A DNA stretch of 64,000 bases, from IMG/VR virus record IMGVR_UViG_3300024999_000092, one strand, 5' to 3'. A program made the translations under genes and the position numbers. Shown in pieces: positions 2,287 to 50,472 of this stretch. A model generated the notes under the pieces. It had not been told where the DNA came from, ran no database searches, and was given only the letters and a program-made list of their open reading frames with translations. The DNA is from an uncultured virus (IMG/VR IMGVR_UViG_3300024999_000092). Its lineage: Duplodnaviria > Heunggongvirae > Uroviricota > Caudoviricetes. Position 1 is the first letter of the stretch. Every line of letters starts with the position of its first letter.

Positions 2287-2626
2287 GGTGAAAAAATTTC
2301 TTCTCGGTGCCGGCATTGTTTCTGGCGGTATTTTTTATTTCATTATTGGACTATTGGGACTGGCCATACATCTATGGACTATTGCAATTTCTTTCTATTA
2401 CGGAGGTATATTTTCTGCGATCATTGCCCTGTCGCTCCCGTTTATTGCGGAATTGTTCTGGTTTATTAATTCATGGATAATTACTGAAACTTTTTTCAAT
2501 ACATATACATCGTCTATTGCCGCTTACGCTGTAGTATCTATATCTACACTATTAATAATAGGGTTCCTTTCATCTAAGATGAATGACAACGCCGAATTGG
2601 AAAAAGAAGAACCGCCTTTAATTTAG
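2276..2626 (+). CDS. Polytopic membrane protein; moron / superinfection-exclusion candidate
   Basis: About three hydrophobic helices in 116 aa. Confidence 0.65.
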   Translation: MNYKVKKFLLGAGIVSGGIFYFIIGLLGLAIHLWTIAISFYYGGIFSAIIALSLPFIAELFWFINSWIITETFFNTYTSSIAAYAVVSISTLLIIGFLSSKMNDNAELEKEEPPLI

Positions 2627-5600
2627 GCGGTTTTCTATTTCCCCAAATATCTTTATGCCATTTCCTCGCTTGGCTACCCTTAGACCTCTATCTCTCAATA
2701 TCTGTATCTTTGCCTCCTGATTAGCTTTATCCATAATGCCTTGTATCCGCTTAGTCTGCGCTTCGGGAGTTAGTCTACTAGATACCCTAGCTATTCCGAC
2801 ATTGGTTTTTTCGCCAACAAGTTTCTGGTATTTTGCGTATTCTTCTCCGGACAACTCAAAATCCTGACCATCTACCTTGAATGACTTATCAACAACTCTA
2901 GGAATTTGTTTGGTTTCTCCTGTCTCGTTGCTAATATCTATTACCGTCTGCGCTTGCTTTGTTGGATTGTATTCATTCACAAATGCAGGATTTAAAAACA
3001 CATTGCCAAGGCTATTACTACCGTCCTGATATGCTTCAAGCGGTTGTCCAAGCGTTCCGTATTTTTGCGGCAATGTACTTGATAATCCAGGAACTCTATT
3101 TATTGTCTTGTTGGTAGTTTGCTTTGCCCAATTAGGATCATATGTTTCCCGTTTTTGGTTATCCATTAACTGCTTAACCTGATTTAGTAGTGTCGGAACA
3201 AAAGAAGAAGGAACCCCTTGCAGTACCCTTAGTATTCCTTGGTCAATTTCCCCGTAACCACTAAATAATGTCTCGATGCCCTGCACGACAGGTTGATCCG
3301 CAAAAGCGTTTATGCCAGTAGATAGTGACTTCATTATGGTTCCAACTATTCCAGTTGCTTTGCCAGCGTTTTTGTCAACGTCTGCACCAACAGCCAATGG
3401 CAGGGAGTTTGGTAACATCCAGTCGTAACTGATTATTTTATCGCCATTTTGCGGTTTAGTATTACCTCCAAACAATACTCTCTTTAGTGCCGAAACATTA
3501 ATGCGGTATTCACCAAAACCTGACTCTCGTTGTATTTCCGCTAATTCCCTATCCTTTTCGGGTCTGCCAGTTATAATGCCTAGTTTATGCAAAATAATAC
3601 CAGTTCCAAATAGAGCAGTAGAACCAACCAACGCCCTTGAAAAAGACTCAACAAAAGCCTTTTGATTAAATTCTTTACCAACTAGGGATCTTGTTGCTTC
3701 GGTAATAACCTTAATCACGCCTGCCGGTGAATATTCAATGCCGCGCATAAGTAAGTTTGCGGGCGTTTTGGGATATTTTACAATAAAATCACCTGCCCCG
3801 AATTCACGCGCCTGCCTTCCTTTTGCAAATCCAAGAACATGAGCAGGGTCATTCATTAGTCTTTTAAGACCAACAAAAAAAGCACTCAAGGCGTTATCAT
3901 CCTGGAAAGTTCTGTAAAGTCCGTCAAGGTGTGCCTGTTCTATCATTTCATCCGTGGGTTTCTCGACCTTCGCCGCCGACATCTGATTGCGCAAAGATTC
4001 TGTTCTTGCTGATTCATAGAACGCCCGGTCAGTTGCCTTTAGTTCGATATTTAAAGCTGTTTCAAGTCTACCCACGATGCCCTTTTTAAACGTCCTACTT
4101 TGCGGTAAATCGAATTTACCATCATAACCTAGCGTGTCAATGCCCAGCATGGCATCTTCAATACCTTCTTTTACTCCCTTAATTCCACCCTTAACCTGTG
4201 TCGCTATGCTCGGTAGCACCTTTGACCTTTTTCCTGTTACCATACTTACGCCCTTGTCGATGCCTGCACCAACAACGTCACTGACGTTCTCCAGGGCATT
4301 AAATCCGGCATTGCCCACCAAGTTTCTAATGGCGGTTTTGGGGTTTAGTAATTGAGCAAAGGTCTGCACCGAAGAAACTTTTCTCCAAAACGATACCGGT
4401 TGCTGCTCTGCTAATATCTTAGATATTTGCCCCCTTAGAATCTCACCTTGCCGACCTTCTGCCATCTGCGCCTGCTCGGACAGGGAAACTAACCTATTGG
4501 CAATATCCTCAGTCAGTACCGGCAACCCCATTTTCTCAGCCACAGAACGCCTATACTGCTCTTTAGACAACGCACCAAGATTTGACAATTCGATAATTTT
4601 CTGGTCAATAGTCCTCTGTTCCTTAGTCAACGACTTCTCACGGAACATATTTTTCAATATCTGCGCTTTCTTCGTTTCCGCTATCTCGGCAAATCTGGCC
4701 TGAATATCCTGCGCCAACAATGCCGCTTCATCCTTCCGTAACATACCCCTGGTAGTTAATTTCTCAGCCAATGTCTGACCTGTTTTCTCTGCTACAGTAA
4801 AGTGTTGCCGGACAATATTATTCACATCAATGCCGTATTGCTTGATGCCCTTAGTAACTTCCCTACTCAACTGTCCCTTAGTGTAGGGATGATAGAGAAG
4901 TTCTGCAAACATCTGGTCAAGATTGACACCTTCAACCGATAAACCTTTTGCCTCTAGCCGCTTAACGATATCCTTCTTAGCTTCTGACCATACCTGATTG
5001 AACATTTTCCTGTTATTTAAGGAGTTATATATCGGTAACATGCCATCCTTGGTAGGTTTAGCACCTTCCACCTTCGGCATAGACTCTTTGGCCTTCTGCA
5101 TCAAGGTATCGAACATTTCTTTAATTAAATTGGACTTAGAATCCTTTGGGGTATTAGTTGCCATCTTAATAATTTTTTCAGCTAATTCTGAAGTTTTTTC
5201 GCCACGTTTCTTGTTTGTAATATCTCTTTTTTTCATTATCGCTTCGTCAAGTTTTACACCTAATTCCATAGCTAGAACTTCTGCATTTCTACCTGTTAAT
5301 CCGCTATCATTAATAATGCTTTTAATAAAATTGCGACTTTCTTCTTGAACGCTCTTGAAAGTTAGCGAGGATATGCCAAAGGCACTTTGCTCCAAATTAA
5401 ATCCTTTACTTTTGATCGCCTCTGACAACAATCTACTAAGTGACCTTTCGGAATACGGTACGTTAAGATAATGCTCAATATACAATTCAACGTCTTTCAT
5501 TACTTGTGGCAATTCGCCATTTTCCTCAATAATTACATTTTTAGCATCTTCCCAGGTTTTGCGGTAGTTGTCGCTTTGTTGTAGTGCGGTAACGACTTCA

Positions 5601-8443
5601 TCTAATGCGTTTTTCTTAGGCAATTTTGTTTTCTCTGTTGGCAAAACTTCTTTGGCCTTAGAGAATAGGGTTTTTACCATCTGCATTTCCTGCGTCAATC
5701 TATTGGCAGGCATCATAGGTCTTGTATAGCTAACTATCTTTTGTGCCAGCATATTAGCCGGGTCAGTCTGTTTCTCGGTATTCGGTTTACCCTGCTTTGG
5801 TTTTGGTTTATTGCCGCCCAACTCAGGTGTTTCATTAACTACCTGGTCGATTGCTTCCTTATCAATGCCGTTAAATTCATCCTGCAATTTACCGCTTAAA
5901 TCATCGTGCTTATCTTTAGTCTGCTTCGGCAACTCGTTAAATGCTTTCTTTGTTTCTTTGTTTGCCTTAATCAGCACGCCTTCGGGAGATAGATTCATAA
6001 ATATTTTTACTGCCTGTGTCATTTGGCCGGCAGAAGTTAATTGCTTACCCATACTTTCAAGCAATTCTACAGACACATCATGCCTGCCCTGCTTCTGCAT
6101 AATATACGCTAACTGACCTGCCATTGCCGGCTTTAGTGCCGATACCTCATTTTCGTCAAAAACATACTTTAATGATTCTTCGATACCGTCAGTTTCAATA
6201 AACTTCCTCGCCGCTGCCTCGGTTTCGATATTCGTAATCGGTTTATACGCGCCCGGACCTTTACTGTAAATATCTACCAATAGACCTGCCTTGGTATCTA
6301 GATCGGTTACGGGCGCATCAATGGCGGTTCTTTGGAAACTTCTAACCCTCTCGTTAGTGCCTGGGAGAACGGATTGTTTTTCCGGCAAAGTTAGTTTGGC
6401 CGCCCCAATCGTTCCTTCATCATAGGTTTCAGCTTTATCCGGTTTTAGTCCAATGTCCTCGGACATAGTTTTAGTTTCCTGTTTACCGCCCTTAATTTCC
6501 TCCTGCAACCCCTCTAACTCCAACCAATCCTCGTCCGTCATATCCTTAGTCTCTTTAGCCTTAATATCCGTCCCGTATGCCCTGTTCTTAGCATCGACAT
6601 ACTCCTTAACCGGAGGATATTTATTACCGTAAATATCGGTATAACCTTCTGTTAAATGCTCGTCAATTAACAACTCAATCCGTTTAGCAAGGGCAACATT
6701 CTCTTGCCCTTGATCGTCAATAATGCGCTGCAATGCGTTTTCAATATCGTCATAACTGGCCTTCTGCTCGTCCAAAAGTTTAGCAATAGTGTCGGTAGTC
6801 ATGCGTTTATTGCCCCACGAGATATTCTCCGGTCCGGTATTCTCGCCATAAACTACTGTACCGCCACGCTCTGCTTTTAATGATGCAGAAAGATCGCCCA
6901 TGATATTTTTAGCCTGTTCTTGAATATGTGGTTTTAATTCAGGGTGATTGTATTGCATGGCCTTAACTTTTTTATCACCGACATTATTAGAATTACGCTT
7001 GTCTACCGGAATATCAAAGCGTTTTGCCTCGGCATCTAGTTTTGTCTTTACCTCGGCAAAGTTTTCTGCCGCATAAGTCCCGTCCTTTTCAACATTTTTA
7101 ACACCGTTCAAAACACTTCTACGGTAAGTATCGGCAGTACCAATCGGGTCAGGAAATTTCTCTTTGAGTTTGTTGTAGTTTGCTTCCGCTAAAAATTCTA
7201 ATTCCTGCGAATATGTTTTCTCGTTGTTGAGCATTTTCATTTGCTTATCTAATTCAAACAACATAGCATGGTCGGCATCGGGCAGGGTTATGTTTGCCGT
7301 TCCCTTACTACCACGATTAATCTTTATTTGAGTTTGCGGCAATGTTTCCTGTGCGACAATTGGTTCCTGTTTAACTGATACGGCAGGTATATCTTCGTCA
7401 GCAAAAGTCTCAGCACCGCTTCGGTTATCCAGTCGTGAAACATCGTTAATGACTGGTTGCTGTTTAATCTCAGGAGTAGTAATCTCCGGCACTTCCGGCA
7501 TTGCCTCGCCTACAACCTCCGGCATTTCTGCCTTAGTTTCCGGCACCTTAACAACCTTGCGGCCAATACTAGCAGTTTTACCGTCCACATCAACTTGAAT
7601 AATCATCTTATCGTTGGTTTTGACGGTTGCTTCTTTGCCGTTAGGTAGAATAACTTTATCACCCTGCTGTAGTCTGAGCTGTGGGTATTCTACACCCAGC
7701 TCAGGGTAGGCATCAATTATCCTGTTTATGCGGCCAAAATTTGAAGTATTCTGCACTATTGACCTTGCACCGTTAATGTCAGCAGGAATATCTTGTTTAA
7801 CTTCGGGGGAGGTGACTTCTTTTTCGGCTAAGGGTATTTCTGTAGACTTCTTCCTGCCTAAATAACTACCTGCGCCATGTATAGCCATGCCTAAAGCGGC
7901 ATTGACTACACCTGCCTCTGCCGCTTCTTGTGGCCTAAATTCACGGTCATTTAGCGTTGCTATCGTTGTTTCATATGGAATAGTTGCGCCGCCGACTTTT
8001 AATCCTGTTTTAACAACACCAGGTAAGTTCTCCAATCCTTTTACTTTTCCCGGCAAATTACCTAAGCCAAGTCCTCGCTCAATTGCCTTCTCGCCCAATT
8101 CAAACAGTCCCTTGCCTGCACTACCTACCTTCAAACTGCCACCAACAGGATCGCCAACAAAACCCATGACACCGCCCCATAGGTCAGCAGATAAGTCGCC
8201 TGCTTTACTGCCGGTACTAACCTTATTGGGATTGTCAACGGTAGTCATAATCTCGCCGCCTGTTTGGCCTGCGCGATCAATCCATTTGCCTGCGGTTTTG
8301 TACCAAGGTTCTTCCTTTGGCGCAGGTGTACCATTCTTAATAGTCATGTATTCCCTTAGTGCCTTTTTGCCATCATCATTCAAGTCGGTTAACTTAACCC
8401 TACCCGATCTTACCGCTTCATATAGTTTTTGCTGACTCACCAT
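2618..8443 (-). CDS. Large internal virion/ejection protein (1941 aa)
   Basis: Last and largest gene of a podovirus-type structural operon; helical, Gly-rich hydrophobic segments; internal ~190-aa duplication. Confidence 0.7.
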   Translation of the reverse strand: MVSQQKLYEAVRSGRVKLTDLNDDGKKALREYMTIKNGTPAPKEEPWYKTAGKWIDRAGQTGGEIMTTVDNPNKVSTGSKAGDLSADLWGGVMGFVGDPVGGSLKVGSAGKGLFELGEKAIERGLGLGNLPGKVKGLENLPGVVKTGLKVGGATIPYETTIATLNDREFRPQEAAEAGVVNAALGMAIHGAGSYLGRKKSTEIPLAEKEVTSPEVKQDIPADINGARSIVQNTSNFGRINRIIDAYPELGVEYPQLRLQQGDKVILPNGKEATVKTNDKMIIQVDVDGKTASIGRKVVKVPETKAEMPEVVGEAMPEVPEITTPEIKQQPVINDVSRLDNRSGAETFADEDIPAVSVKQEPIVAQETLPQTQIKINRGSKGTANITLPDADHAMLFELDKQMKMLNNEKTYSQELEFLAEANYNKLKEKFPDPIGTADTYRRSVLNGVKNVEKDGTYAAENFAEVKTKLDAEAKRFDIPVDKRNSNNVGDKKVKAMQYNHPELKPHIQEQAKNIMGDLSASLKAERGGTVVYGENTGPENISWGNKRMTTDTIAKLLDEQKASYDDIENALQRIIDDQGQENVALAKRIELLIDEHLTEGYTDIYGNKYPPVKEYVDAKNRAYGTDIKAKETKDMTDEDWLELEGLQEEIKGGKQETKTMSEDIGLKPDKAETYDEGTIGAAKLTLPEKQSVLPGTNERVRSFQRTAIDAPVTDLDTKAGLLVDIYSKGPGAYKPITNIETEAAARKFIETDGIEESLKYVFDENEVSALKPAMAGQLAYIMQKQGRHDVSVELLESMGKQLTSAGQMTQAVKIFMNLSPEGVLIKANKETKKAFNELPKQTKDKHDDLSGKLQDEFNGIDKEAIDQVVNETPELGGNKPKPKQGKPNTEKQTDPANMLAQKIVSYTRPMMPANRLTQEMQMVKTLFSKAKEVLPTEKTKLPKKNALDEVVTALQQSDNYRKTWEDAKNVIIEENGELPQVMKDVELYIEHYLNVPYSERSLSRLLSEAIKSKGFNLEQSAFGISSLTFKSVQEESRNFIKSIINDSGLTGRNAEVLAMELGVKLDEAIMKKRDITNKKRGEKTSELAEKIIKMATNTPKDSKSNLIKEMFDTLMQKAKESMPKVEGAKPTKDGMLPIYNSLNNRKMFNQVWSEAKKDIVKRLEAKGLSVEGVNLDQMFAELLYHPYTKGQLSREVTKGIKQYGIDVNNIVRQHFTVAEKTGQTLAEKLTTRGMLRKDEAALLAQDIQARFAEIAETKKAQILKNMFREKSLTKEQRTIDQKIIELSNLGALSKEQYRRSVAEKMGLPVLTEDIANRLVSLSEQAQMAEGRQGEILRGQISKILAEQQPVSFWRKVSSVQTFAQLLNPKTAIRNLVGNAGFNALENVSDVVGAGIDKGVSMVTGKRSKVLPSIATQVKGGIKGVKEGIEDAMLGIDTLGYDGKFDLPQSRTFKKGIVGRLETALNIELKATDRAFYESARTESLRNQMSAAKVEKPTDEMIEQAHLDGLYRTFQDDNALSAFFVGLKRLMNDPAHVLGFAKGRQAREFGAGDFIVKYPKTPANLLMRGIEYSPAGVIKVITEATRSLVGKEFNQKAFVESFSRALVGSTALFGTGIILHKLGIITGRPEKDRELAEIQRESGFGEYRINVSALKRVLFGGNTKPQNGDKIISYDWMLPNSLPLAVGADVDKNAGKATGIVGTIMKSLSTGINAFADQPVVQGIETLFSGYGEIDQGILRVLQGVPSSFVPTLLNQVKQLMDNQKRETYDPNWAKQTTNKTINRVPGLSSTLPQKYGTLGQPLEAYQDGSNSLGNVFLNPAFVNEYNPTKQAQTVIDISNETGETKQIPRVVDKSFKVDGQDFELSGEEYAKYQKLVGEKTNVGIARVSSRLTPEAQTKRIQGIMDKANQEAKIQILRDRGLRVAKRGNGIKIFGEIENRLN

Positions 8444-30970: not shown

Positions 30971-31420
30971 CTAATCTCCAATAAGTTCGCGCGCTCTCCG
31001 GGCCAACTCTGCGCTGCTGACTTCTACTTCTACAGGTCCACCGTCAGCGCCCGTGAGCTCCAGCTTTTGAGTGTCGGACCATCCAAAGTTATTCGTGAGG
31101 CTGAATTTTGCTCCCCTGTCGTTGCCCTCAAAAAGCTGTTCCTCGGTAAATACTTCGCATCTTGAACGGGCGCGCGAAACTGTGGGGAAATATTCGTCGT
31201 CTTGAGAGTAGTTATAGAGCGTTTTCCGGTCGCATCCTAAATAGAAAGCTAATCCGCTCAATGTATATGGTCTTTTCGCGTTCACCGATACAACATTGCC
31301 TTGTTTTGTCACCTGCTCTATCGTTCGACTATCGCAATACGCGAAATACTCGTCAATCCTGCCTTGCAATTCCTCAACACTCGTAAATTTCAACGGTCTT
31401 CCTGCTGGCATCCCCTTCAC
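30971..31420 (-). CDS. terS: Terminase small subunit (P22 gp3-like DNA-packaging protein)
   Basis: GRPLKFTSVEELQGRIDEYF, PYTLSGLAFYLG, GAKFSLTNNFGW, ELTGADGGPV. Confidence 0.85.
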   Translation of the reverse strand: MKGMPAGRPLKFTSVEELQGRIDEYFAYCDSRTIEQVTKQGNVVSVNAKRPYTLSGLAFYLGCDRKTLYNYSQDDEYFPTVSRARSRCEVFTEEQLFEGNDRGAKFSLTNNFGWSDTQKLELTGADGGPVEVEVSSAELARRARELIGD

Positions 31421-32315: not shown

Positions 32316-32452
32316 CGACTAAACCCCGAAAACAAGCAAAACTTTCCGTTTTCGCCGGTTTTCTTGTGTTTTATGCGGAATAAAATAACTGTTGACTATG
32401 GGTATCCATATATGATAGTATAGTAAAAATAAATTAAGCGGGAGGAATACTA

Positions 32453-32671
32453 ATGAAAATTCAATATATCGGAGAAGTACCTGATAGCGCAAGAACAATA
32501 GTGAAAGGATATATCAGCGATATTCTGAAAGGCACAGAAAATGATAAATTTCTAGTCTGTCCTGAATATACTAAGTCGGATGAATTAACAAACTTCCTAA
32601 AAAACTTCAACGGCGAAGATAATTTAGTTTACGACAATGAAACATGGTATTATATCTACCCTAAAAACTAA
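32453..32671 (+). CDS. Small early hypothetical protein with its own promoter and terminator
   Basis: RBS GGGAGG; hairpin AACCGCC/GGCGGTT plus T-tract follows. Confidence 0.7.
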   Translation: MKIQYIGEVPDSARTIVKGYISDILKGTENDKFLVCPEYTKSDELTNFLKNFNGEDNLVYDNETWYYIYPKN

Positions 32672-32762
32672 CCGCCTAAACATGGCGGTTTTTCTTTTCT
32701 TTAGAGCTGGGTTGCCATATGGGTATCCGTTATAGTATACTATCCCTGGAGGTGATTTTAAA

Positions 32763-32963
32763 ATGTCAGCAAAAAGAAAAGAAAAATATAGAGACGGTTG
32801 GGAAAGTTTCAACCTGCGCCTGTCAACCGAGGATAAAGCAAAACTAGCCGAAATGTCAGCAAATACGCGGGTTCCGGCATCCGAAATAGCTAGAAACGCT
32901 ATCAAAAAAGAACTTGCGGAACTTCAAAAAACGCTGAAAAAGGCAGATACAGCTAGTATCTAG
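32763..32963 (+). CDS. Ribbon-helix-helix repressor of the early island
   Basis: SFNLRLSTEDKAKLAEMSANTRVPASEIARNAIKKEL; flanked by operator copies. Confidence 0.8.
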   Translation: MSAKRKEKYRDGWESFNLRLSTEDKAKLAEMSANTRVPASEIARNAIKKELAELQKTLKKADTASI

Positions 32964-33108
32964 TAGGCATGTTAAGCTGGATACCCATAGATAGCTGAAT
33001 ATAAGGTTATTTGAGGCTTTACGGCATGGGTATCCATAAGCTATACTAAGCACATGGAACACAACAACAAAATAACAAACGCCCACAGAGGCGAAGGAGG
33101 ATAATAAA

Positions 33109-33507
33109 ATGACAATGACAATTCAAAACTTCATCGAGCAGAATAAAATTAAAATGTCCTGCGAGTATGCAGACAGCAACCCAAACATGGCAGACTCCGC
33201 AAACATGAACCATTATAAGTGTCAACTTCGCAGAAGCGGAAAGCAACTAACAATTAACTTTTCACAGGGTTATGGAATATCAGGAGATCCGGAAGTTGAA
33301 TCAGTATTAAGTTGCTTGGCATCAGATTCAATAGGGGTAGAAAATGCAGGAAATTTTGAGGACTGGGCGCAGGAATACGGATACGACACAGACAACAGGA
33401 AGGCAGAAAAAATATATAAAGTGTGCGAAAGACAGTCGCAAAAATTAAAGAATTTCCTTGGAGAAGAATTATACGGTAAATTATTATGGGAAACCGAGCA
33501 ATACTAA
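33109..33507 (+). CDS. Early hypothetical protein
   Basis: RBS AAGGAGG; FEDWAQEYGYDTDNRKAEKIY motif. Confidence 0.75.
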   Translation: MTMTIQNFIEQNKIKMSCEYADSNPNMADSANMNHYKCQLRRSGKQLTINFSQGYGISGDPEVESVLSCLASDSIGVENAGNFEDWAQEYGYDTDNRKAEKIYKVCERQSQKLKNFLGEELYGKLLWETEQY

Positions 33508-33562
33508 CCCACCTGACGAGTGCCGGACGGTAACCGGTCGAATCCCCGAAAGGGGAAGTGGG
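33508..33562 (+). ncRNA. Type I hammerhead ribozyme fold (variant core)
   Basis: Stem I CCCAC 33508-12/GTGGG 33558-62; core CTGACGA 33513-19; stem II 33520-39; GAA 33540-42; stem III TCCCC-GAAA-GGGGA 33543-56; single unpaired A33557. Confidence 0.75.
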
Positions 33563-33593
33563 AAACCAAACTAAATACGAGGAGGATGCACAC

Positions 33594-33749
33594 ATGAAAT
33601 ATCAAGGATTAGTAGTTGACAGTTTAAAGTCACTGGATACCAAAAAAACCAAATCTTACGACACCTACAAAGAGGCACACGATGCAGCCGAAAAACTCTG
33701 TAAGCGCACGATGGGAGATAGAGGTAAGGTCGAAGTCGAAACCCGCTAA
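33594..33749 (+). CDS. Small early hypothetical protein (51 aa)
   Basis: Start moved to MKYQ at 33594 with RBS GAGGAGG. Confidence 0.65.
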   Translation: MKYQGLVVDSLKSLDTKKTKSYDTYKEAHDAAEKLCKRTMGDRGKVEVETR

Positions 33750-33940
33750 GTCTACTCCGTGAAGGCCGGAGCAGGAGGCCAAAAACCTCCTGACAGTTCA
33801 AGGGTTATCATTAGACCCAGCGCACCGACAGCAACAAACTACCAACAGAATACGAAAAACCCCACAGCGCAACCCGGTGAAGTCTGCATGATGCGGATCA
33901 AAGGGAGCGAACACTGGATACGAGGCTAACGGTGCTAGAT
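33750..33940 (+). ncRNA. Candidate ~190-nt multi-stem structured RNA
   Basis: Intergenic; nested helices GTCTA/TAGAT, CTCCG/CGGAG, CAGGAGG/CCTCCTG, GGGTT/GACCC, GCACCG/CGGTGC, CCGGTG/CACTGG, TCTGCA/TGCGGA. Confidence 0.55.
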
Positions 33941-34026
33941 ATGCAGAAAAGGGGAAGTTTAGGTTTTATCCAAACGCCTTCGATAGAGGGAATTTCGATA
34001 AAACTTAAACAAAGGAGATTGATAAC

Positions 34027-34311
34027 ATGAAAAACATGACAGTTAGAGAATTATTACCGACCATTGGGATCATAGAAAGCGTTATCGATGAAGTTATCGG
34101 AAACCTTGAAATGTCAGTATCGAGAGGTTACGACATCAAATCCAGAGGAATCAGAACAGATAATAAAGTCCAAGTAGTAACGGTTTCACCGAATGTAAAA
34201 TGGACAGATGGAACCTGCAGACCAGCTTATGGCGGTAGGGAATACGAGGTAACGATTTACCTAAACAAATTAACAGATGTAAATTTAAGGAGGGTTTTTG
34301 ATTTACAGTAG
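34027..34311 (+). CDS. Early hypothetical protein
   Basis: RBS AAAGGAG directly after a long hairpin. Confidence 0.7.
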   Translation: MKNMTVRELLPTIGIIESVIDEVIGNLEMSVSRGYDIKSRGIRTDNKVQVVTVSPNVKWTDGTCRPAYGGREYEVTIYLNKLTDVNLRRVFDLQ

Positions 34312-34378
34312 AACCTTTTTAGGTTTTACCTCTGCATCCTGCCGGGTGTGGAGTTAAAATCTAAGGAGGATGATAATT

Positions 34379-34639
34379 ATGAATTATGAAAAATTAACAA
34401 AGTTAATGAACGGCGAAACTGTTAAAGTTGGTAAGAAAAATAATCAAATATACCTCGATAAAGCAACAGACTTGTTTGTAGTTGAAATGTATGAGTTTAC
34501 AAGTGATTTGGAAGGTGAGATGTTTAGTATTGGTGATAGTTTTGAAAACATTGAAGTTGCCGTAGCAGTAGCCACTAGATATACATGCGAGACTTATAAC
34601 TATGAGGTACAGCAAAGATTATTAAAACAGTTTGCATAA
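34379..34639 (+). CDS. Early acidic hypothetical protein
   Basis: RBS AAGGAGG directly after a long hairpin. Confidence 0.7.
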   Translation: MNYEKLTKLMNGETVKVGKKNNQIYLDKATDLFVVEMYEFTSDLEGEMFSIGDSFENIEVAVAVATRYTCETYNYEVQQRLLKQFA

Positions 34640-34721
34640 AATAACCATTAGGGACTCCGGTCCCTGCTTCGCCAAAACTCCTTTAGAGAGGGGTTTTGTT
34701 GAGGTAAAGGAGGGGTTAGCC

Positions 34722-34913
34722 ATGATGTTCACATTCGCCGCATCGATCTGGCACAACAGCACCAAGAACGAAATCATGGGCCACATTATGAACAATATCA
34801 AGGGTAGTGAGTTTAAAATCACCGAGGAACCAGACAATAAGATTAAGAATGTCGGCAAATTTGAGTATGAGAGTAGCGAGGGACTTGACTATCACATCTA
34901 CAAAATTAAGTAG
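34722..34913 (+). CDS. Early hypothetical protein
   Basis: Start moved to MMFTF at 34722 with RBS AAGGAGG. Confidence 0.6.
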   Translation: MMFTFAASIWHNSTKNEIMGHIMNNIKGSEFKITEEPDNKIKNVGKFEYESSEGLDYHIYKIK

Positions 34914-34925
34914 GAGGATAAAACT

Positions 34926-35195
34926 ATGAAAAAAGGCGACATTGTAGAAATTAAAGGCGGTTATTTCAAGGCAGACAATGGACTTTTCCGTGTAGAGCAA
35001 GCACCGGGAGATCCGGGTTGGTTAGGCAATGACTGGTGCCTATACCGAGTCAATAAAGATTATACCTACTCCAAGAGTAAACACAGAACAGCATTTTGGC
35101 CGCTTATGGTTACGGTATCAAGTCGCGAAAAACGCATAGAAGCAAAAAAGCACAACGCCGAACATGCAACGATTGAAGTTATAAGACCAGCTTAA
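34926..35195 (+). CDS. Early hypothetical protein (KOW/SH3-like start)
   Basis: MKKGDIVEIKGG; RBS AGGAGG. Confidence 0.7.
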   Translation: MKKGDIVEIKGGYFKADNGLFRVEQAPGDPGWLGNDWCLYRVNKDYTYSKSKHRTAFWPLMVTVSSREKRIEAKKHNAEHATIEVIRPA

Positions 35196-35263
35196 TTTCT
35201 GGTTTATCCTAACCTTAAACGAGTTAGGATATGCGAGGGATTAAATAAAGGGAGGAATAAATA

Positions 35264-35890
35264 ATGAAAACTTTATATTTTGAAGGTGCCGGAAGTGTAC
35301 CGCGCGGAATGGTTGAAAACTGCCGCATTAGAACAGCTTTTCATAATGACAAGGGAGAGGCCATCTACTTAGAAATGTCTGGTTTTGAAGTAACTAAAAA
35401 CAGTCCCAGAAGTATCAAGCAGTTTACTTGTGCCGGATTCGTTGACCATTGTCATTATATTATGGGTGACGATGATTGTAACAAGCACAGCATTGTAGAT
35501 ATGAGGCACAAAACATTTGAATACAACAAATCCGAAATACTTAGTATTGTAAATTCTCTGGGATGCAGTTTTGACGAGGTTGTTATTCTTCCCGACTTAG
35601 CCGGTTATCGCGTTTTTAAGGATCGCGAAGGTCACAACTTCGGTGATGAATTTCAATTTAACGCAGAACTCGCCGCACGCGCAGAAGAAATCAGGGTCCA
35701 TTTTTACGCACTAGAAAAAAGCGAGGGTAAGAAATACCCTAACTTTTCACTATGGGTTGACCAGGATAACAAGGAAATGCTTCACTTGTTGCGACATTTT
35801 AACGGCTATAACAAGCACTGGTCAATAGTAAATAGCGAAAACTGGCAGGAAAGCATAGTCGAAACCGTATTTGGAAAGTACGCCTGTTAA
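35264..35890 (+). CDS. Early hypothetical protein
   Basis: 208 aa, LYFEGAG...NCRIRTAF; RBS GGGAGG. Confidence 0.75.
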   Translation: MKTLYFEGAGSVPRGMVENCRIRTAFHNDKGEAIYLEMSGFEVTKNSPRSIKQFTCAGFVDHCHYIMGDDDCNKHSIVDMRHKTFEYNKSEILSIVNSLGCSFDEVVILPDLAGYRVFKDREGHNFGDEFQFNAELAARAEEIRVHFYALEKSEGKKYPNFSLWVDQDNKEMLHLLRHFNGYNKHWSIVNSENWQESIVETVFGKYAC

Positions 35891-35990
35891 TATACAAATT
35901 AAAACTCCCCGGTAGCTGTTGCGAGCAGTAAAACCGGGGAGCAGGGAAAATATTTAAGTCACACATATTATAACATAGGAGGGCGACTAA

Positions 35991-36390
35991 ATGAGTGCTT
36001 ATGTAGTAGACAAGGAAACCATTGACCGTATTGTAACTTATATCCACAGACAACACATTGATATTGACATTATTTGCAGTTATTATCCAGAAATGGCGGA
36101 AGCATACAAAAGGCGACTGCAACAAACTAGGCCAAAAGATGCTGACAATGAACAATAAGGCGGTTGACTATCGTTATAATGAGAATAACCCCATTGAGAT
36201 TTACAAGTATAGTTATGTCGTTGCTAGTTTAGTACAGGTTTATAAATCCTTGCAATGCTTTTTATACCAATGCAGTGAGGGAGATATTCCGAAGTCGAAA
36301 CTTTTCCAAGGTTTACGCAGACTAGAGCATAATATAGCTAATCAAATTATCTCCAATATGCCGGAATACAACAAGGCACAATGGGGTTAA
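35991..36390 (+). pseudogene. Early gene split by a +1 frameshift
   Basis: ATG 35991 (RBS GGAGGG) reads MSAYVVDKETIDRIV...AEAYK; the other frame continues GDCNKLGQKML...QCFLYQCSE...AQWG; span is 400 nt; extra A in AAAA 36108-36111. Confidence 0.65.
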
Positions 36391-36476
36391 TAGGGACACA
36401 CGTCCCTTGCCTAAACTCTCTAGTAGGAGGGTTTAGGGAGGGGATCTCCAATATTATGAGGGAGGTTTTACTTATT

Positions 36477-36746
36477 ATGAATTTCATAGGTGGAAGAAAT
36501 GTCGATTTAAACAACGTGAAAATTACTTTTGACGATGCACCCGGCGAGTTAGAATTAGGCACAGTCTGGAAAATTGACAGCGACATGAATTTACTACAGA
36601 TTATCACCGACACCGACCACGAGGACGGAATTGCCCAATTTGCCGATTGTGAAAGCATTGCTAGATATATCAGCGACTTTTACTTCTATGACTACAAAAA
36701 ACCGGAAGGATTAACCGAATTTCTTGAAAAAGTCAGAAAATTATAG
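36477..36746 (+). CDS. Early acidic hypothetical protein
   Basis: Start MNFIGG with RBS GGGAGG; Asp/Glu-rich. Confidence 0.65.
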   Translation: MNFIGGRNVDLNNVKITFDDAPGELELGTVWKIDSDMNLLQIITDTDHEDGIAQFADCESIARYISDFYFYDYKKPEGLTEFLEKVRKL

Positions 36747-36810
36747 TCTTTCGTTATCTCCTGCCGTGTCAGGGGATGCCGAAGGATTATATTAAGAGGG
36801 AGGAATACCG

Positions 36811-37068
36811 ATGGCAAAACAATGGCAAAGATTAACTAGGCATCGCTGGGTTGCCGGTGCTACCATCACTGAAAGTTGCTCCGTAAATCAAGACAACATC
36901 AGGAGGTTTACGGCAACCATAAGAGGGTGGAGAAATTGGCTTATCTTTGAGGGCGACATAACTAAAATAGACGCACAACAGATAATGGATAAAGTCATAG
37001 AAATAATGGACCGTATTGACAATGGTGATAAGGAAATTTTTAACGAGGACACCAGAATTATTGCATAG
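36811..37068 (+). CDS. Early hypothetical protein
   Basis: RBS GGGAGG after a hairpin. Confidence 0.65.
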   Translation: MAKQWQRLTRHRWVAGATITESCSVNQDNIRRFTATIRGWRNWLIFEGDITKIDAQQIMDKVIEIMDRIDNGDKEIFNEDTRIIA

Positions 37069-37083
37069 AGGGAGGGCAACACA

Positions 37084-37320
37084 ATGACCGTAAACACGCA
37101 CCACAACCCCATACACGAGAGCAAATCCGAAGCAGGTACAAATACACCCGAGTTAAGCAAATATAGTCTAGCAGTATATTTTCCCGACTTGCAGGTAGGC
37201 AAATGCCTTGTCCCTGCCGGGGTGGATCGGAATGAAGTATGGGGAGTGTCGCCGTTGGATGCCTGTCAATGGATGGCAGAGCATTTCCGGTCGGCGGAGT
37301 GGGTGGAGGTGGAAAGATAA
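37084..37320 (+). CDS. Early hypothetical protein
   Basis: RBS GGGAGGG. Confidence 0.5.
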   Translation: MTVNTHHNPIHESKSEAGTNTPELSKYSLAVYFPDLQVGKCLVPAGVDRNEVWGVSPLDACQWMAEHFRSAEWVEVER

Positions 37321-37505
37321 TGTATTTTGGTTCAGAAAGTTGGGGAAAGTTTGGGTGCTCAGGAAGAACCATGTTGCATGCTTGCCGCGAATGTTCTCGT
37401 TTCCGTCCGATGGCAGTGAGGAAATGTGATAAGCGAAATAACGTAAAGGGTGACACGTTTTCTTGTAAGCACTTTTTGTTCCGAGCGGATAAAGGTTTTC
37501 GCTAA
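37320..37505 (+). CDS. Small Cys-rich hypothetical protein
   Basis: Start MYFGS at 37320 with RBS GGAGGTGG. Confidence 0.5.
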   Translation: MYFGSESWGKFGCSGRTMLHACRECSRFRPMAVRKCDKRNNVKGDTFSCKHFLFRADKGFR

Positions 37506-37540: not shown

Positions 37541-37566
37541 AAAAAGCAGGGGTTTTATCCCCTGCT
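37541..37566. terminator. Terminator between the convergent early island and the arpU/rinA gene
   Basis: AAAAAGCAGGGG-TTTTAT-CCCCTGCT. Confidence 0.65.
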
Positions 37567-38003
37567 CACCTCAACAATCCTCTTCTAACCGCCAATGTCC
37601 GTCCCTCCTCTAATATCCCCTGCCACCGATTATAAACCGTTCTCACATTTACCCCTAGTTCTTTCGCGATTATCTGTTTAGTAGATTTCCCGCTAACATG
37701 TTTTTCATGTGTCCGTTTCAATCTTAGTAGCAATTTATCATCATCACACAAACCTGCTACCAATTCCTCAACCACTTTCAACCACGTTTCAGTTACCGCC
37801 AGCGATGCCAACGCGATCCCCGCACTAGCTGTTTTATTACCGACACTGCTACCGCGAGGCATACCGTCAGCAGGCGGGGGAGAGTTTTCCAATATCCTCT
37901 CCCTGTCCTGTTCGTACTGTAACTTTATCTCAAAATAGTTGATTGAATAGTTAGCAACAATTTGTTTTTCCTGCCTAAATGGATCTGCGAGAGGTTTTCT
38001 CAT
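37566..38003 (-). CDS. ArpU/RinA-family late transcription activator
   Basis: GMPRGSSVGNKTASAGI, C-terminal HTH IAKELGVNVRTVYNRW; last gene of the middle operon. Confidence 0.75.
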   Translation of the reverse strand: MRKPLADPFRQEKQIVANYSINYFEIKLQYEQDRERILENSPPPADGMPRGSSVGNKTASAGIALASLAVTETWLKVVEELVAGLCDDDKLLLRLKRTHEKHVSGKSTKQIIAKELGVNVRTVYNRWQGILEEGRTLAVRRGLLR

Positions 38004-38844: not shown

Positions 38845-39378
38845 TCAATCTCCCTTCTTCTTCCGCTTCTTCTTGACCTCCGACTTGCCATGCAGAGCGT
38901 CAATAACTTCCTGTTGATATGCCGTCAGACCGTCCGTATTGCCCATATAAGCTAGTCCAATATGCACAAGTACCGCCGCATCCGTTTCGTCGTTTGTACG
39001 GCACTCTATGCCCCATTTTTTGTACGCCGCAACTGCTATTTCTTCCTTGCTTGCGTTAGCCTTTCCGGTTGCGAATTTCTTTAACTGCATAGTCCCAACA
39101 ATTAGCAATTTCTTATTCATTTCTTTAATTAGGACTCTTAATACGCCGCCCAGTTCTCCTATTTGGTGCGCTTGATTAGTTCTTGAAAAGGCATAATCTT
39201 CTAAAACAACTAAGTCGGCAAAGATGATGTTTTCTCTTATTTCTTCCCTTATTTCAATAAGTCTATCTACGCCTTTTAACTTACTTTCTATGCGCTCTGT
39301 AGCAGTTTTTAGGTTAAATCCGTTACTTACCGCTAACCCTGTACCTGTCAGGGACGCATCAATGCCCACGACTTTCAT
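38845..39378 (-). CDS. RuvC-like Holliday junction resolvase
   Basis: VVGIDASLTGTG, VVLED, LKKFATGKANASK, NDETDA. Confidence 0.85.
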   Translation of the reverse strand: MKVVGIDASLTGTGLAVSNGFNLKTATERIESKLKGVDRLIEIREEIRENIIFADLVVLEDYAFSRTNQAHQIGELGGVLRVLIKEMNKKLLIVGTMQLKKFATGKANASKEEIAVAAYKKWGIECRTNDETDAAVLVHIGLAYMGNTDGLTAYQQEVIDALHGKSEVKKKRKKKGD

Positions 39379-49110: not shown

Positions 49111-50472
49111 TTACGCTGATTTTAGCCATTCTGGTATTTGCATTATTTCTTGTGGGTCATAGATTGTCGCATCCCTAAGTGTCGCTCTTATATTTTCAGC
49201 ACAGATACTTTGTGTAGCGGCAATCATCCCAGACAACATTTCCTGGAATTCCTGCTCTTTACGATTAATGTTTTCAACTACTGCTCCCTCTGCCTCTGAA
49301 GTAATAACATACACATTAACGGGTTTTGTTTGTCCGAATCTCCAGCAACGGCGCACAGCTTGAAAATACTGCTCGAAAGAATCTGATAATCCGACAAACG
49401 CCATATTGCTGCATACTTGCATATTAATTCCGAATCCGCATATTGACGCTTTAGAAACAAGTATTGGTATCTCTCCAGCTGAAAACTCGGCTATTGTCTT
49501 TTCCTTATACTCCGGTTTATGACTACCTCTGATTTCTATAGCATCTTGAATAGACTTAGTAAGTTTGTCCGATTCATCATTTAATCCACACCACACCAAC
49601 CAGTTTTCTTTTGATTGATTAATCAATTCAGCGGCGGCGGCAACCCTAAAATCAACACTTTCCTTCCGCGCTTTCCTGCGCTCTGTCATAGTTTTCGCTT
49701 CCGGTCCATCCGTCGGTACTACTACTGAATGAATATTTAGCGGTGGCAATTGATACTCTGTATCCTCATATCCCAGGTCAGAAGGGTTCTGTAACATAAC
49801 AGCCCATGATGCAACCCAAGTCCAAAACGATTCCCTAACGTGTCCCTTTAGTCGCCATTTAGACGTATCACCACCATCATGCACAAACCACATAGCAAGC
49901 ATTTCTGACCGCTTCATCACTCCCAAAAACTCAGCATGGTTACACAACTCCATAATATCGTTTGGTGCAGGAGTGGCGGTACATGCTAGTCGGTAAGGTG
50001 TTTTGCTGAATGATTCTATAATCTGATTCCTTACCTTTCCAGTAAATGACTTCAAAATACTGGATTCATCAAGTACAACCCCAATAAAATGTTCAAGGTT
50101 AAACTTATGCAACATTTCATAGTTAGTTATGGTGATACCTGGCATAATTTCTTCTTGACTTCGGCAATAATTAACCTCGATACCAAACTTTTCACCTTCG
50201 CGAACTGTCTGCTGTGCAACCGCTAAAGGTGCTACAATAAGTACGTCGCCTCCGGTATATATACAAACTTTATTTGCATATTCAAGTTGCATAAAGGTTT
50301 TGCCAAGTCCGGTCCCGGCAAATATCGCTGCCCGACCTTTCTGTAGTGACCATCTCACAATATCGCTCTGAAATAATTTTGCGTGAATATTTATATCGTC
50401 TGCCGATACCCTGAAACCTACGCTATCGACAAATAATTTCTTGCTCTCTAAAAACTCTTTATAATCAACCAA
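49111..50472 (-). CDS. SNF2-like superfamily 2 helicase
   Basis: GTGLGKT, LDESS, TATPAPND, GFGINMQ, QAVRRCWRFGQ. Confidence 0.88.
   Translation of the reverse strand: MVDYKEFLESKKLFVDSVGFRVSADDINIHAKLFQSDIVRWSLQKGRAAIFAGTGLGKTFMQLEYANKVCIYTGGDVLIVAPLAVAQQTVREGEKFGIEVNYCRSQEEIMPGITITNYEMLHKFNLEHFIGVVLDESSILKSFTGKVRNQIIESFSKTPYRLACTATPAPNDIMELCNHAEFLGVMKRSEMLAMWFVHDGGDTSKWRLKGHVRESFWTWVASWAVMLQNPSDLGYEDTEYQLPPLNIHSVVVPTDGPEAKTMTERRKARKESVDFRVAAAAELINQSKENWLVWCGLNDESDKLTKSIQDAIEIRGSHKPEYKEKTIAEFSAGEIPILVSKASICGFGINMQVCSNMAFVGLSDSFEQYFQAVRRCWRFGQTKPVNVYVITSEAEGAVVENINRKEQEFQEMLSGMIAATQSICAENIRATLRDATIYDPQEIMQIPEWLKSA

Follow-up and report, generated by a model that had tools for sequence, protein, structure and literature searches.

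A plus-strand island of small phage genes as a putative RNA-punctuated operon, in which ribozymes and hairpins replace one another between cistrons

Hairpins cut by RNase III process the early RNA of phage T7 and, between cistrons, the RNA of the Bacillus phages SP82 and SPO1, and in Bacillus subtilis RNase Y matures polycistronic mRNAs. Clustered self-cleaving ribozymes in prophage operons have reportedly been described by Weinberg et al. in 2015. The operons closest to the one considered here appear in excerpts of the work of Perreault et al.: several hammerheads flank single genes or short blocks in prophages, processing to single-gene mRNAs was proposed, clustered prophage hammerheads cut polycistronic RNAs of about 2 kb in vitro, including around the anti-restriction gene ardA, and the biological purpose of such ribozymes was called unclear (Perreault 2011, PMC3088659). 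Pistol ribozymes, according to an excerpt of Harris et al., occur near phage genes and other ribozymes (Harris 2015, PMC4604425). Here we describe an island of small genes in 64,000 nucleotides (nt) of DNA from the uncultured virus IMGVR_UViG_3300024999_000092; this whole stretch is called the window below. Like the prophage operons of Perreault et al., the island has changing small phage genes separated by cis-acting RNA elements on one strand. Unlike them, its gaps mostly hold plain long hairpins, together with one hammerhead whose core contains a rare U15.1-A16.1 pair.

The window is phage DNA of groundwater/sediment metagenome origin and is read mainly from the minus strand (68 minus-strand against 22 plus-strand genes in a rough call). 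The island is its sole large plus-strand block, with 14 small genes at 32453-37505 (Table 1), and positive GC skew is restricted to 33-37 kb and two small patches. We consider it probable that this island is a polycistronic operon punctuated at the RNA level. The elements between its genes are present as strand-specific structures, they covary, and they occupy slots in which related phages carry bona fide ribozyme families. The original prediction, made from the sequence alone, described about 13 small plus-strand genes, headed by a ribbon-helix-helix (RHH) gene with four operators and divided into single-gene units. The block is real, the four operator copies are exact, and RNA elements in the spacers do divide the operon; however, there are 14 genes, one of them frameshifted, the RHH-like gene is the second, behind a gene with its own promoter, operator and terminator, and the stretches 34722-35195 and 36811-37505 are coupled blocks.

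With the island proteins as queries, related islands were found in about a dozen viral contigs, which are named below by locus number (L004, L006 and so on). Nucleotide similarity between them is limited to the RHH/promoter region and to short spacer pieces of 91-100% identity, such as window 34319-34364 against L004 5930-5975 (100%) and 34649-34713 against L014 (95%), and the intervening genes are unrelated. Rfam, applied at the gathering score to 12 related loci, identified seven pistols, one twister-P5 and one type II hammerhead, all of them in spacers and on the island strand. It is instructive to compare individual slots. Downstream of the first gene after promoter P3 lies a hammerhead variant in the window, a type I hammerhead with a canonical core in L014, and a pistol in L004 and L015-L018. 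After the 208-aa gene (aa, amino acids) or its homologue, one and the same hairpin is found in the window and in L004, and a pistol in L006. In L004 and L016 almost every long spacer contains a ribozyme or a sense-specific hairpin. The presence of different ribozyme classes and of hairpins in the same slots indicates that these elements are interchangeable by position.

The hairpins are the most numerous of the elements. Ten island spacers of at least 58 nt were folded, with z-scores taken against dinucleotide-preserving shuffles. The fold z was between -2.0 and -6.8 in eight of the 10, and the island spacers had a median of -2.75 (n=9), compared with a median of -0.33 in the remaining 22 co-directional spacers within the window (Mann-Whitney p 1.2e-4). 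Seven spacers contain hairpins of 12-25 pairs (25, 22, 17, 17, 16, 15 and 12), and the five to six long hairpins of the earlier reading are thus confirmed and slightly exceeded. Most of them contain an internal loop of 1x1 and begin 0-14 nt 3' of the upstream stop codon. Two of the seven have stems of at least 20 pairs, where RNase III sites are duplexes of about two helical turns, in many cases with an internal loop. G.U pairs make up 23 of the 124 pairs in the window hairpins, and folds of the antisense strand, with just one G.U pair, are far less stable; over 15 hairpins from the window and its relatives the count is 58 of 255 pairs, against one in the antisense folds. The G.U-rich sense folds and weak antisense folds show that the hairpins belong to plus-sense RNA and not to duplex DNA. 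Only three junctions (a 12-nt gap, a 15-nt gap and an overlap) have no element, which gives nine units of one to three genes each.

One class of these hairpins, at 36747-36786 in the window, 4442-4481 and 6573-6614 in L016 and 9894-9937 in L004, is rich in U/C on its 5' arm (UCUUUC, UUUCUU, UUUCCUU) and in purines on its 3' arm, which resembles a Shine-Dalgarno (SD) sequence (GAAGGA, GGGAGA, AGGGGAA); the base of this class resembles an anti-SD:SD duplex. Two other identities were considered for the repeated hairpins and set aside. Their arms do not seem to match the GTTRRRY core of integron attC sites, and CRISPR-like repeats were dropped because the "spacers" are genes.

Do the hairpins need to be cut at all? 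They might act only as translational insulators or switches, which keep or hide the ribosome-binding site that follows and let cassettes function in whatever order they stand; RiboJ, a ribozyme-plus-hairpin design of synthetic biology, resembles such an arrangement. The hairpin bases lie 0-40 nt from the SD, and at 34314-34369 (IG4) the stem base includes the SD itself. In several L004 spacers the SD is paired with a C-run 3' of the stop codon, and in all 11 parsed copies the hairpin following the 101-nt RNA described below stops 1-6 nt short of the SD, a count which leaves out three copies outside the pattern or at the end of a locus. Nevertheless, most hairpins are nearer to the upstream stop codon (0-14 nt) than to the SD, which suits a role at 3' ends, and the same slots in the relatives hold self-cleaving ribozymes, so that the formation of RNA ends is the property common to all. 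We therefore regard insulation without cutting as an unlikely explanation of the whole island.

Another possibility is that the conserved pieces matter mainly as DNA, giving phages patches of homology at which to exchange cassettes, and that the folding of their RNA is incidental. T4-type phages have promoter-stem-loop cassettes which offer an analogue, and the high identity of the spacer segments between unrelated flanking genes fits it well. However, the folds need G.U pairs that exist only in the sense strand, and compensatory changes preserve the pairing of the stems; recombination requires neither property. It is more plausible that exchange follows from the conservation of functional RNA, and a purely DNA-level role is distinctly improbable. 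Under RNA-level punctuation the two functions can be combined: the elements are conserved while the genes are not, which suggests that they also serve as homology patches.

The element at the first slot after P3 had been noticed earlier as a hammerhead fold, and this assignment was upheld: the core strands and three stems are present, and the copy belongs to a covarying type I family, within which it has a flipped U-A pair and scores below the Rfam threshold. Its layout over 33508-33562 is CCCAC-CUGACGA-(stem II, loop ACGGUAA)-GAA-(stem III)-A-GUGGG, with a predicted cut after A33557. A pattern scan returned 14 viral loci, 10 with the hammerhead layout and four by chance; with L037 this gave nine distinct copies. 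The core strands CUGACGA (33513-33519) and GAA (33540-33542) are invariant in all nine. Among the pairs of stems I and II, seven of 12 vary on both sides, 98.1% of the cells pair, and none of 500 shuffles matches this. Stem III folds in nine of nine copies although their sequences there are unrelated. Rfam assigns the window copy only 12.7 bits with its hammerhead model (RF00163; gathering score 34), in a misaligned form, and the canonical-core copy of L014 is also below threshold (15.2 against 34, and 26.2 against 56.3 for RAGATH-1, RF03152), from which it follows that the subfamily is poorly covered by the Rfam models.

Loop II (ACGGUAA, 33527-33533) and the AACC tail behind stem I (33563-33567) are likewise invariant in all nine copies, and GGU of the loop could pair with ACC of the tail as a tertiary pseudoknot. 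This invariance suggests a tertiary contact between loop and tail, of the type described by Perreault et al.

The long spacer at 33750-34026 had been read as one multi-stem RNA of about 190 nt. It is structured (z -4.2) and conserved, but it is a composite of four modules, which appear in the same order in most of 14 distinct related sequences: a ribozyme slot, a linker, a 101-nt RNA (the core) and a hairpin. In these 14 core-bearing sequences the ribozyme slot is filled by a type II hammerhead in seven and, by eye, in L030, by a pistol in three, by a type I hammerhead in L037, and by element X, a three-way-junction RNA, in two (the window and L025). Of those seven type II hammerheads, three reach the gathering score and four are just below it (30.3-36.2 bits), all with E <= 0.0082. 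The genes flanking the spacer differ among the phages.

The core contains two covarying hairpins with invariant single strands at their sides. Nine of its 25 predicted pairs vary on both sides, 97.1% of the cells pair against 26.5-41.7% with slid partners, and 0 of 500 shuffles match; the outer helices are invariant and hence give no covariation signal. The hairpin behind it has 18-22 pairs and a conserved base. A coding reading of 33759-33929 is excluded by indels of 7 and 8 nt in one loop among the relatives. A covariance model search found a single core per island, none in L015-L018, and an independent diverged copy in L006 (4760-4914, 44.9 bits), which lies directly 3' of a TTGACA-17-TATAAT site and not of a ribozyme. 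This placement suggests that the core works at or near a 5' end. A three-block pattern for the core gave 0 hits in genome_contigs and 6 in metagenome_contigs, and is uninformative on distribution, being too long in its first gap and missing the short variant. For element X an 18-mer scan gave 13 loci, three with X and 10 in unrelated coding sequence, a sample with no power for covariation. Neither core nor element X matched a family in Rfam, the only place where earlier descriptions of the core were sought. At E <= 10 on the 6-kb island Rfam gave mir-737, SNORD125, IS128, ceN101 and Clostridiales-2, which are chance rows.

What could this RNA do? The core and element X may represent two undescribed RNA classes, the core a regulatory RNA and X a new self-cleaving class or a protein-dependent cleavage site; taken jointly, this is a speculative reading which we hold to be unlikely. 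Under it, the 5' end of the core would be made by the preceding ribozyme and its 3' side bounded by the hairpin, and it might function as a small RNA once freed, or in cis as an antiterminator.

A wider version of the last idea would explain the whole island without processing. The hairpins would be points of transcription pausing or termination and the 101-nt RNA an antiterminator acting in cis, comparable to the put RNAs of phage HK022, giving graded transcription along the island. Such a role would suit an RNA that is single in each island and near its start, that has two covarying hairpins with invariant single-strand flanks, and that in L006 directly follows a promoter-like site. It does not suit the hairpins of the island, none of which has a U run, nor L015-L018, which keep the hairpins without the core, nor the window, where the core is two genes downstream of P3, and we consider this explanation very improbable. 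That the structures arose by chance from the biased composition of an A+G-rich coding strand is scarcely credible: promoter-like and terminator-like patterns are indeed over-called in the region (28 against 15.1 and 12 against 5.6 expected) and the overall fold of the hammerhead spacer is not significant, but shuffles that preserve dinucleotides served as controls, conservation and covariation of the elements extend across phages, and ribozymes at Rfam level sit in the same slots of the relatives.

Three plus-strand promoter-like sites lie at the start of the island: P1 precedes the 72-aa gene 1, P2 the 66-aa RHH-like gene, and P3 the rest of the island. One more such site was found in an island spacer (36766, 9/12), which speaks against a promoter in every spacer, and the sole plus-strand terminator-like site of the island is the one at 32670-32690, after gene 1. 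The few promoter-like sites in spacers and the single terminator point to one transcript, of which P3 is the presumed start.

The three promoter-like sites share a putative operator. Exact copies of ATGGGTATCC lie at 32398, 32719, 32979 (minus strand) and 33026, four in all, with no other in 64 kb. When one mismatch is allowed there are five copies against 3.2 expected, which 23 of 100 shuffles reach and which is not significant; the signal consists of the four exact copies inside 640 bp (expectation about 0.12 per window) and of their conserved placement in five relatives. In these five the offsets from the RHH start are the same (-41/-45, +212/215 and +261/264), the orientation flips, and in L015, L016 and L018 the site at -41 is the perfect palindrome TGGATATCCA. 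Flips of orientation and a palindrome at -41 are expected of a dimer that binds a dyad. The related island of L016 carries at 5366-5765 a second promoter-like site (TTGACA...TATATAAT), accompanied by a small RHH-like gene of its own, the protein of which starts with MTIPKDKIRISITFPK.

The 66-aa protein is the candidate for this dimer. Its residues 14-60 match Pfam RHH_3 (PF12651; E 0.0012, 19.2 bits, cut-off 21.6), and the protein also matches RHH_1 (PF01402; E 0.022, 15.2 bits, cut-off 20.5), the repressor family phrog_876 of PHROGs (E 3e-4) and an NCBIfam RelB-like model (E 0.0066, 16.6 bits, cut-off 50). These matches are consistent over three libraries; a PDB sequence search with the protein gave no match. 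Modelled as a homodimer it scored 0.48 against 0.00 for the best of three controls, a mark that 20 of 30 proteins solved as pairs attain, and one of 23 solved as single chains. Contact agreement between runs was at least 95% and partner pLDDT (predicted local distance difference test) at least 69. In the predicted dimer residues 15-20 contact themselves and residues 42-51 are also in contact, which would fit the ribbon of an RHH fold; the pass may reflect likeness to solved RHH dimers. As in RHH repressors, the dyad-symmetric operators overlap promoter-like sites, here P1, P2 and P3. Autoregulation by a small RHH-like protein fits the operator placement and the homodimer model, and the protein presumably contacts the operators directly.

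The following course of events would account for these observations. Host RNA polymerase would start at P3, the promoters being of host type, and a dimer of the RHH-like protein would set the level by binding a dyad of 10-12 bp (consensus TGGATATCCA) inside the spacers of P1, P2 and P3, its own promoter included. The P3 transcript would then be split post-transcriptionally into the nine units, each long spacer providing a cis-acting RNA element, either self-cutting or a stable sense-strand hairpin. The self-cutting element would be a hammerhead with a weakened core in the window, and a pistol, type II hammerhead or twister in the relatives; cutting itself, such a ribozyme would leave most of its fold on the upstream piece. 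Hairpins at the ends of cistrons would block 3' exonucleases, thus marking and protecting the new ends, and might themselves be cut by RNase III. Alternatively, they may flag the adjacent A/U-rich linker, between hairpin and SD, for RNase Y. A hairpin or purine run close to the SD would shield the new 5' end, and hairpins would also keep the next ribosome-binding site independent of the upstream sequence. Each cassette would in this way carry its own end-forming signal, functional wherever recombination puts it, and the conserved signals would double as homology patches for swaps of gene cassettes.

Cleavage in vivo, the nuclease and the timing are what we infer here. If RNA-level punctuation is accepted, cutting of the hairpins by RNase III is possible but doubtful, and the same can be said of RNase Y or some other nuclease; as far as inference goes, RNase III and RNase Y are equally good candidates. 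That no hairpin is cut and that all of them protect or insulate only has rather less than an even chance.

Several results weigh against a processed, RHH-controlled operon. All five public runs found to contain the phage are DNA runs, and none is RNA. Rfam at the gathering score gave no match in the window, with pistol (RF02679), twister (RF02684) and type II hammerhead (RF02276) included. In the hammerhead, the sole ribozyme candidate of the window, the 15.1-16.1 pair that closes stem III is U-A, with A17, where eight of the nine copies have A-U, and the spacer as a whole has ordinary stability (z -0.9 to -1.5). Hairpin A8 varies on both sides in only two of 22 pairs, a number that 290 of 500 shuffles equal; hairpin covariation is modest because the relatives are close. 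The RHH-like protein scores below every curated cut-off, and its monomer model is all helix with no strand (pLDDT 75). A natural hammerhead with U15.1-A16.1 "self-cleaves, albeit less efficiently", according to an excerpt of Perreault 2011 (PMC3088659). Judged by its core, the window copy is probably slow or a relic.

No island protein reached a curated cut-off in Pfam or NCBIfam, none of the 14 was matched by PADLOC, and PHROGs names only the repressor, weakly, and a family of unknown function for the 132-aa protein. A characterised or defence family was thus sought without success in Pfam, PHROGs, NCBIfam and PADLOC, a set which does not include a dedicated anti-defence library; these searches lend no support to the host-takeover or anti-defence role of the original prediction. 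An Atlas search with the 132-aa protein returned viral hypothetical clusters only (best score 0.86). At least 751 proteins make up the family of the 208-aa protein; none of them has a Pfam domain or a name beyond "hypothetical", and members occur in prophage-like regions of Clostridia (Oscillospiraceae, Lachnospiraceae, Anaerocolumna, Aminipila). Of 22 loci of this family 18 were scanned, and two have ribozymes inside 4 kb. The model of the 208-aa protein has a pLDDT of 91.2; Foldseek found no PDB match at E <= 0.001, and a wide VIA-align search gave at best Z 5.4 over 64 residues, from which no function follows. The gene at 35991-36390 reads as two pieces, of 55 and 83 aa, with the frame change next to an A-run, and its intact homologue in L004 (7403-7798) has 131 aa; the gene could be a pseudogene, or the split could stem from an assembly error or mark a recoding site. 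According to an excerpt of Harris 2015 (PMC4604425), pistols are prevalent in Firmicutes. Together with the relatives of the 208-aa protein and the strong GGAGG sites, this makes a Firmicute-type host plausible on sequence grounds.

The island lies between the replication module, which also has a DnaD-like loader, a methyltransferase and MazG, and the terminase/head module, where past the island the leftward reading runs from the small terminase to a terminase-like gene, the portal and major head genes. The window further encodes a CI-like repressor and an anti-repressor. A tRNA search of the window with ARAGORN was negative, and blastn of the window against a phage collection gave no match. 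In the structural region an open reading frame of 1941 aa (2618-8443, minus strand) had no match in a PHROG search at E <= 1e-6.

Table 1. Positions of the island features and of neighbouring genes, in window coordinates (HTH, helix-turn-helix)
Feature	Position	Strand	Remarks
Small terminase	30971-31420		PF16677, E 2e-21
P1 promoter-like site (TTGACT, 16-18 nt, -10)	32392..32424	+	operator O1 (32398-32407) within spacer
Gene 1, 72 aa, no family	32453..32671	+	separate unit; absent in relatives L016 and L004
Intrinsic-terminator-like hairpin with T run, 3' of gene 1	32670..32690	+	
P2 promoter-like site (TTGCCA, 18 nt, TATACT; 10/12)	32712..32741	+	operator O2 (32719-32728) within spacer
RHH-like repressor gene, 66 aa	32763..32963	+	
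Operator O3, inverted copy	32979..32988	-	37 nt from O4
P3 promoter-like site (TTTACG, 18 nt, TATACT)	33018..33047	+	operator O4 (33026-33035) within spacer
Gene, 132 aa	33109..33507	+	phrog_4273 (unknown function)
Type I hammerhead variant	33508..33567	+	stem I CCCAC/GUGGG; core CUGACGA ... GAA; loop II ACGGUAA; AAACC tail
Gene, 51 aa, no family	33594..33749	+	
Element X, three-way-junction RNA	33750..33816	+	fold z -2.3
C/A-rich linker	33817..33855	+	no predicted structure, partly conserved
Conserved 101-nt structured RNA (core)	33856..33956	+	one copy per island
22-pair hairpin	33956..34010	+	conserved base GUUUAGGUUU...AAACUUAAAC, then SD
Gene, 94 aa, no family	34027..34311	+	
25-pair hairpin (6 G.U)	34314..34369	+	base contains SD of next gene; 46 nt 100% identical in L004, between different genes
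Gene, 89 aa (86 aa if start 34379), no family	34370..34639	+	
Double hairpin	34650..34705	+	34650-34665 (6 pairs), 34666-34705 (17 pairs, 5 G.U); 95% identity in L014-L018
Coupled gene pair, 63 aa and 89 aa	34722..35195	+	12-nt gap
17-pair hairpin	35196..35240	+	immediately past stop codon
Gene, 208 aa, large uncharacterised phage family	35264..35890	+	confident model, no known fold match
15-pair hairpin	35905..35941	+	common to L004
Frameshifted gene	35991..36390	+	+1 frame change near 36100-36110
Double hairpin	36392..36437	+	36392-36407 (6 pairs), 36410-36437 (12 pairs)
Gene, 89 aa, no family	36477..36746	+	
16-pair hairpin	36747..36786	+	immediately past stop codon; 91% identity to L016; L004 one base off
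Coupled three-gene block, 85 aa, 78 aa, 61 aa (Cys-rich)	36811..37505	+	
Hairpin common to converging operons	37544..37567	-	T run on minus strand only
Weak HTH / sigma-region-4-like gene	37566-38003		converging with island
RuvC-like resolvase	38845-39378	-	replication module
Helicase	49111-50472	-	replication module

Transcription on the opposite strand deserves separate mention. The small antisense unit of the original prediction was not identified, the minus-strand promoter-like and terminator-like sites not being conserved. One pair, a promoter-like site at 32812(-) with a terminator-like site at 32690(-), was rejected: it lies in conserved coding sequence, and the terminator is absent from relatives without gene 1. 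With a second pair, 34969(-) and 34665(-), an antisense unit is possible on paper. Two small spacer hairpins, at 33080-33093 (-) and 34650-34665 (-), are terminator-like on the minus strand, with a T-rich run, and could stop antisense transcription. Since the hairpin at the end of the island has its T run on the minus strand only, island transcripts may continue antisense into the HTH/sigma-like gene, and such run-on is a possible link between island expression and a late switch.

Why bacteria and phages retain many self-cleaving ribozymes is a wider question which this family of islands touches. The replacement of ribozyme classes and hairpins by one another argues that the making or protection of RNA ends is what matters, and not the chemistry of a particular ribozyme. 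The island offers a 5-kb test bed under one repressor, in which natural variants can be compared, such as canonical with U15.1-A16.1 hammerheads or, behind one and the same gene, a ribozyme with a hairpin. It also provides two candidate new RNA families, the 101-nt RNA and element X. Should the gene products turn out to act in anti-defence or takeover, punctuation would explain how cassettes function wherever recombination drops them.

Compared with the RNase III sites of T7, SP82 and SPO1, the island has similar long imperfect intercistronic hairpins with small internal loops in a phage operon, its stems having 12-25 pairs. As at those sites, a purine-rich SD-like sequence follows the hairpin and could stabilise the new 5' end. 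An SP82 stabiliser is mentioned in an excerpt of PMC7509114. The likeness to maturation by RNase Y lies in the probable hosts, which are of Firmicute type, in the A/U-rich single strands beside intercistronic stem-loops, and in the differential stability of segments that would be expected. With Aca-type anti-defence operons the island shares a small DNA-binding dimer at the head of small orphan genes and dyad operators that overlap promoters, its own included; Aca-type regulators, however, are usually HTH proteins, whereas this regulator is RHH-like.

The nearest likeness is to the prophage operons of the first paragraph, with their proposed processing of a long transcript into single-gene or operon-length mRNAs. 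The original prediction did not recognise its combination of self-cleaving ribozyme and RNase III as described for a temperate Firmicute podovirus. As a claim of novelty this is too strong, since an RNA-processed operon has already been proposed in outline (Perreault 2011, PMC3088659). What distinguishes the island from those operons is a conserved RHH-operator circuit and a 101-nt RNA behind a ribozyme slot. This circuit, the unnamed 101-nt RNA and element X appear to be new, as do the predominance of hairpins over ribozymes and the positional swapping of four ribozyme classes and hairpins.

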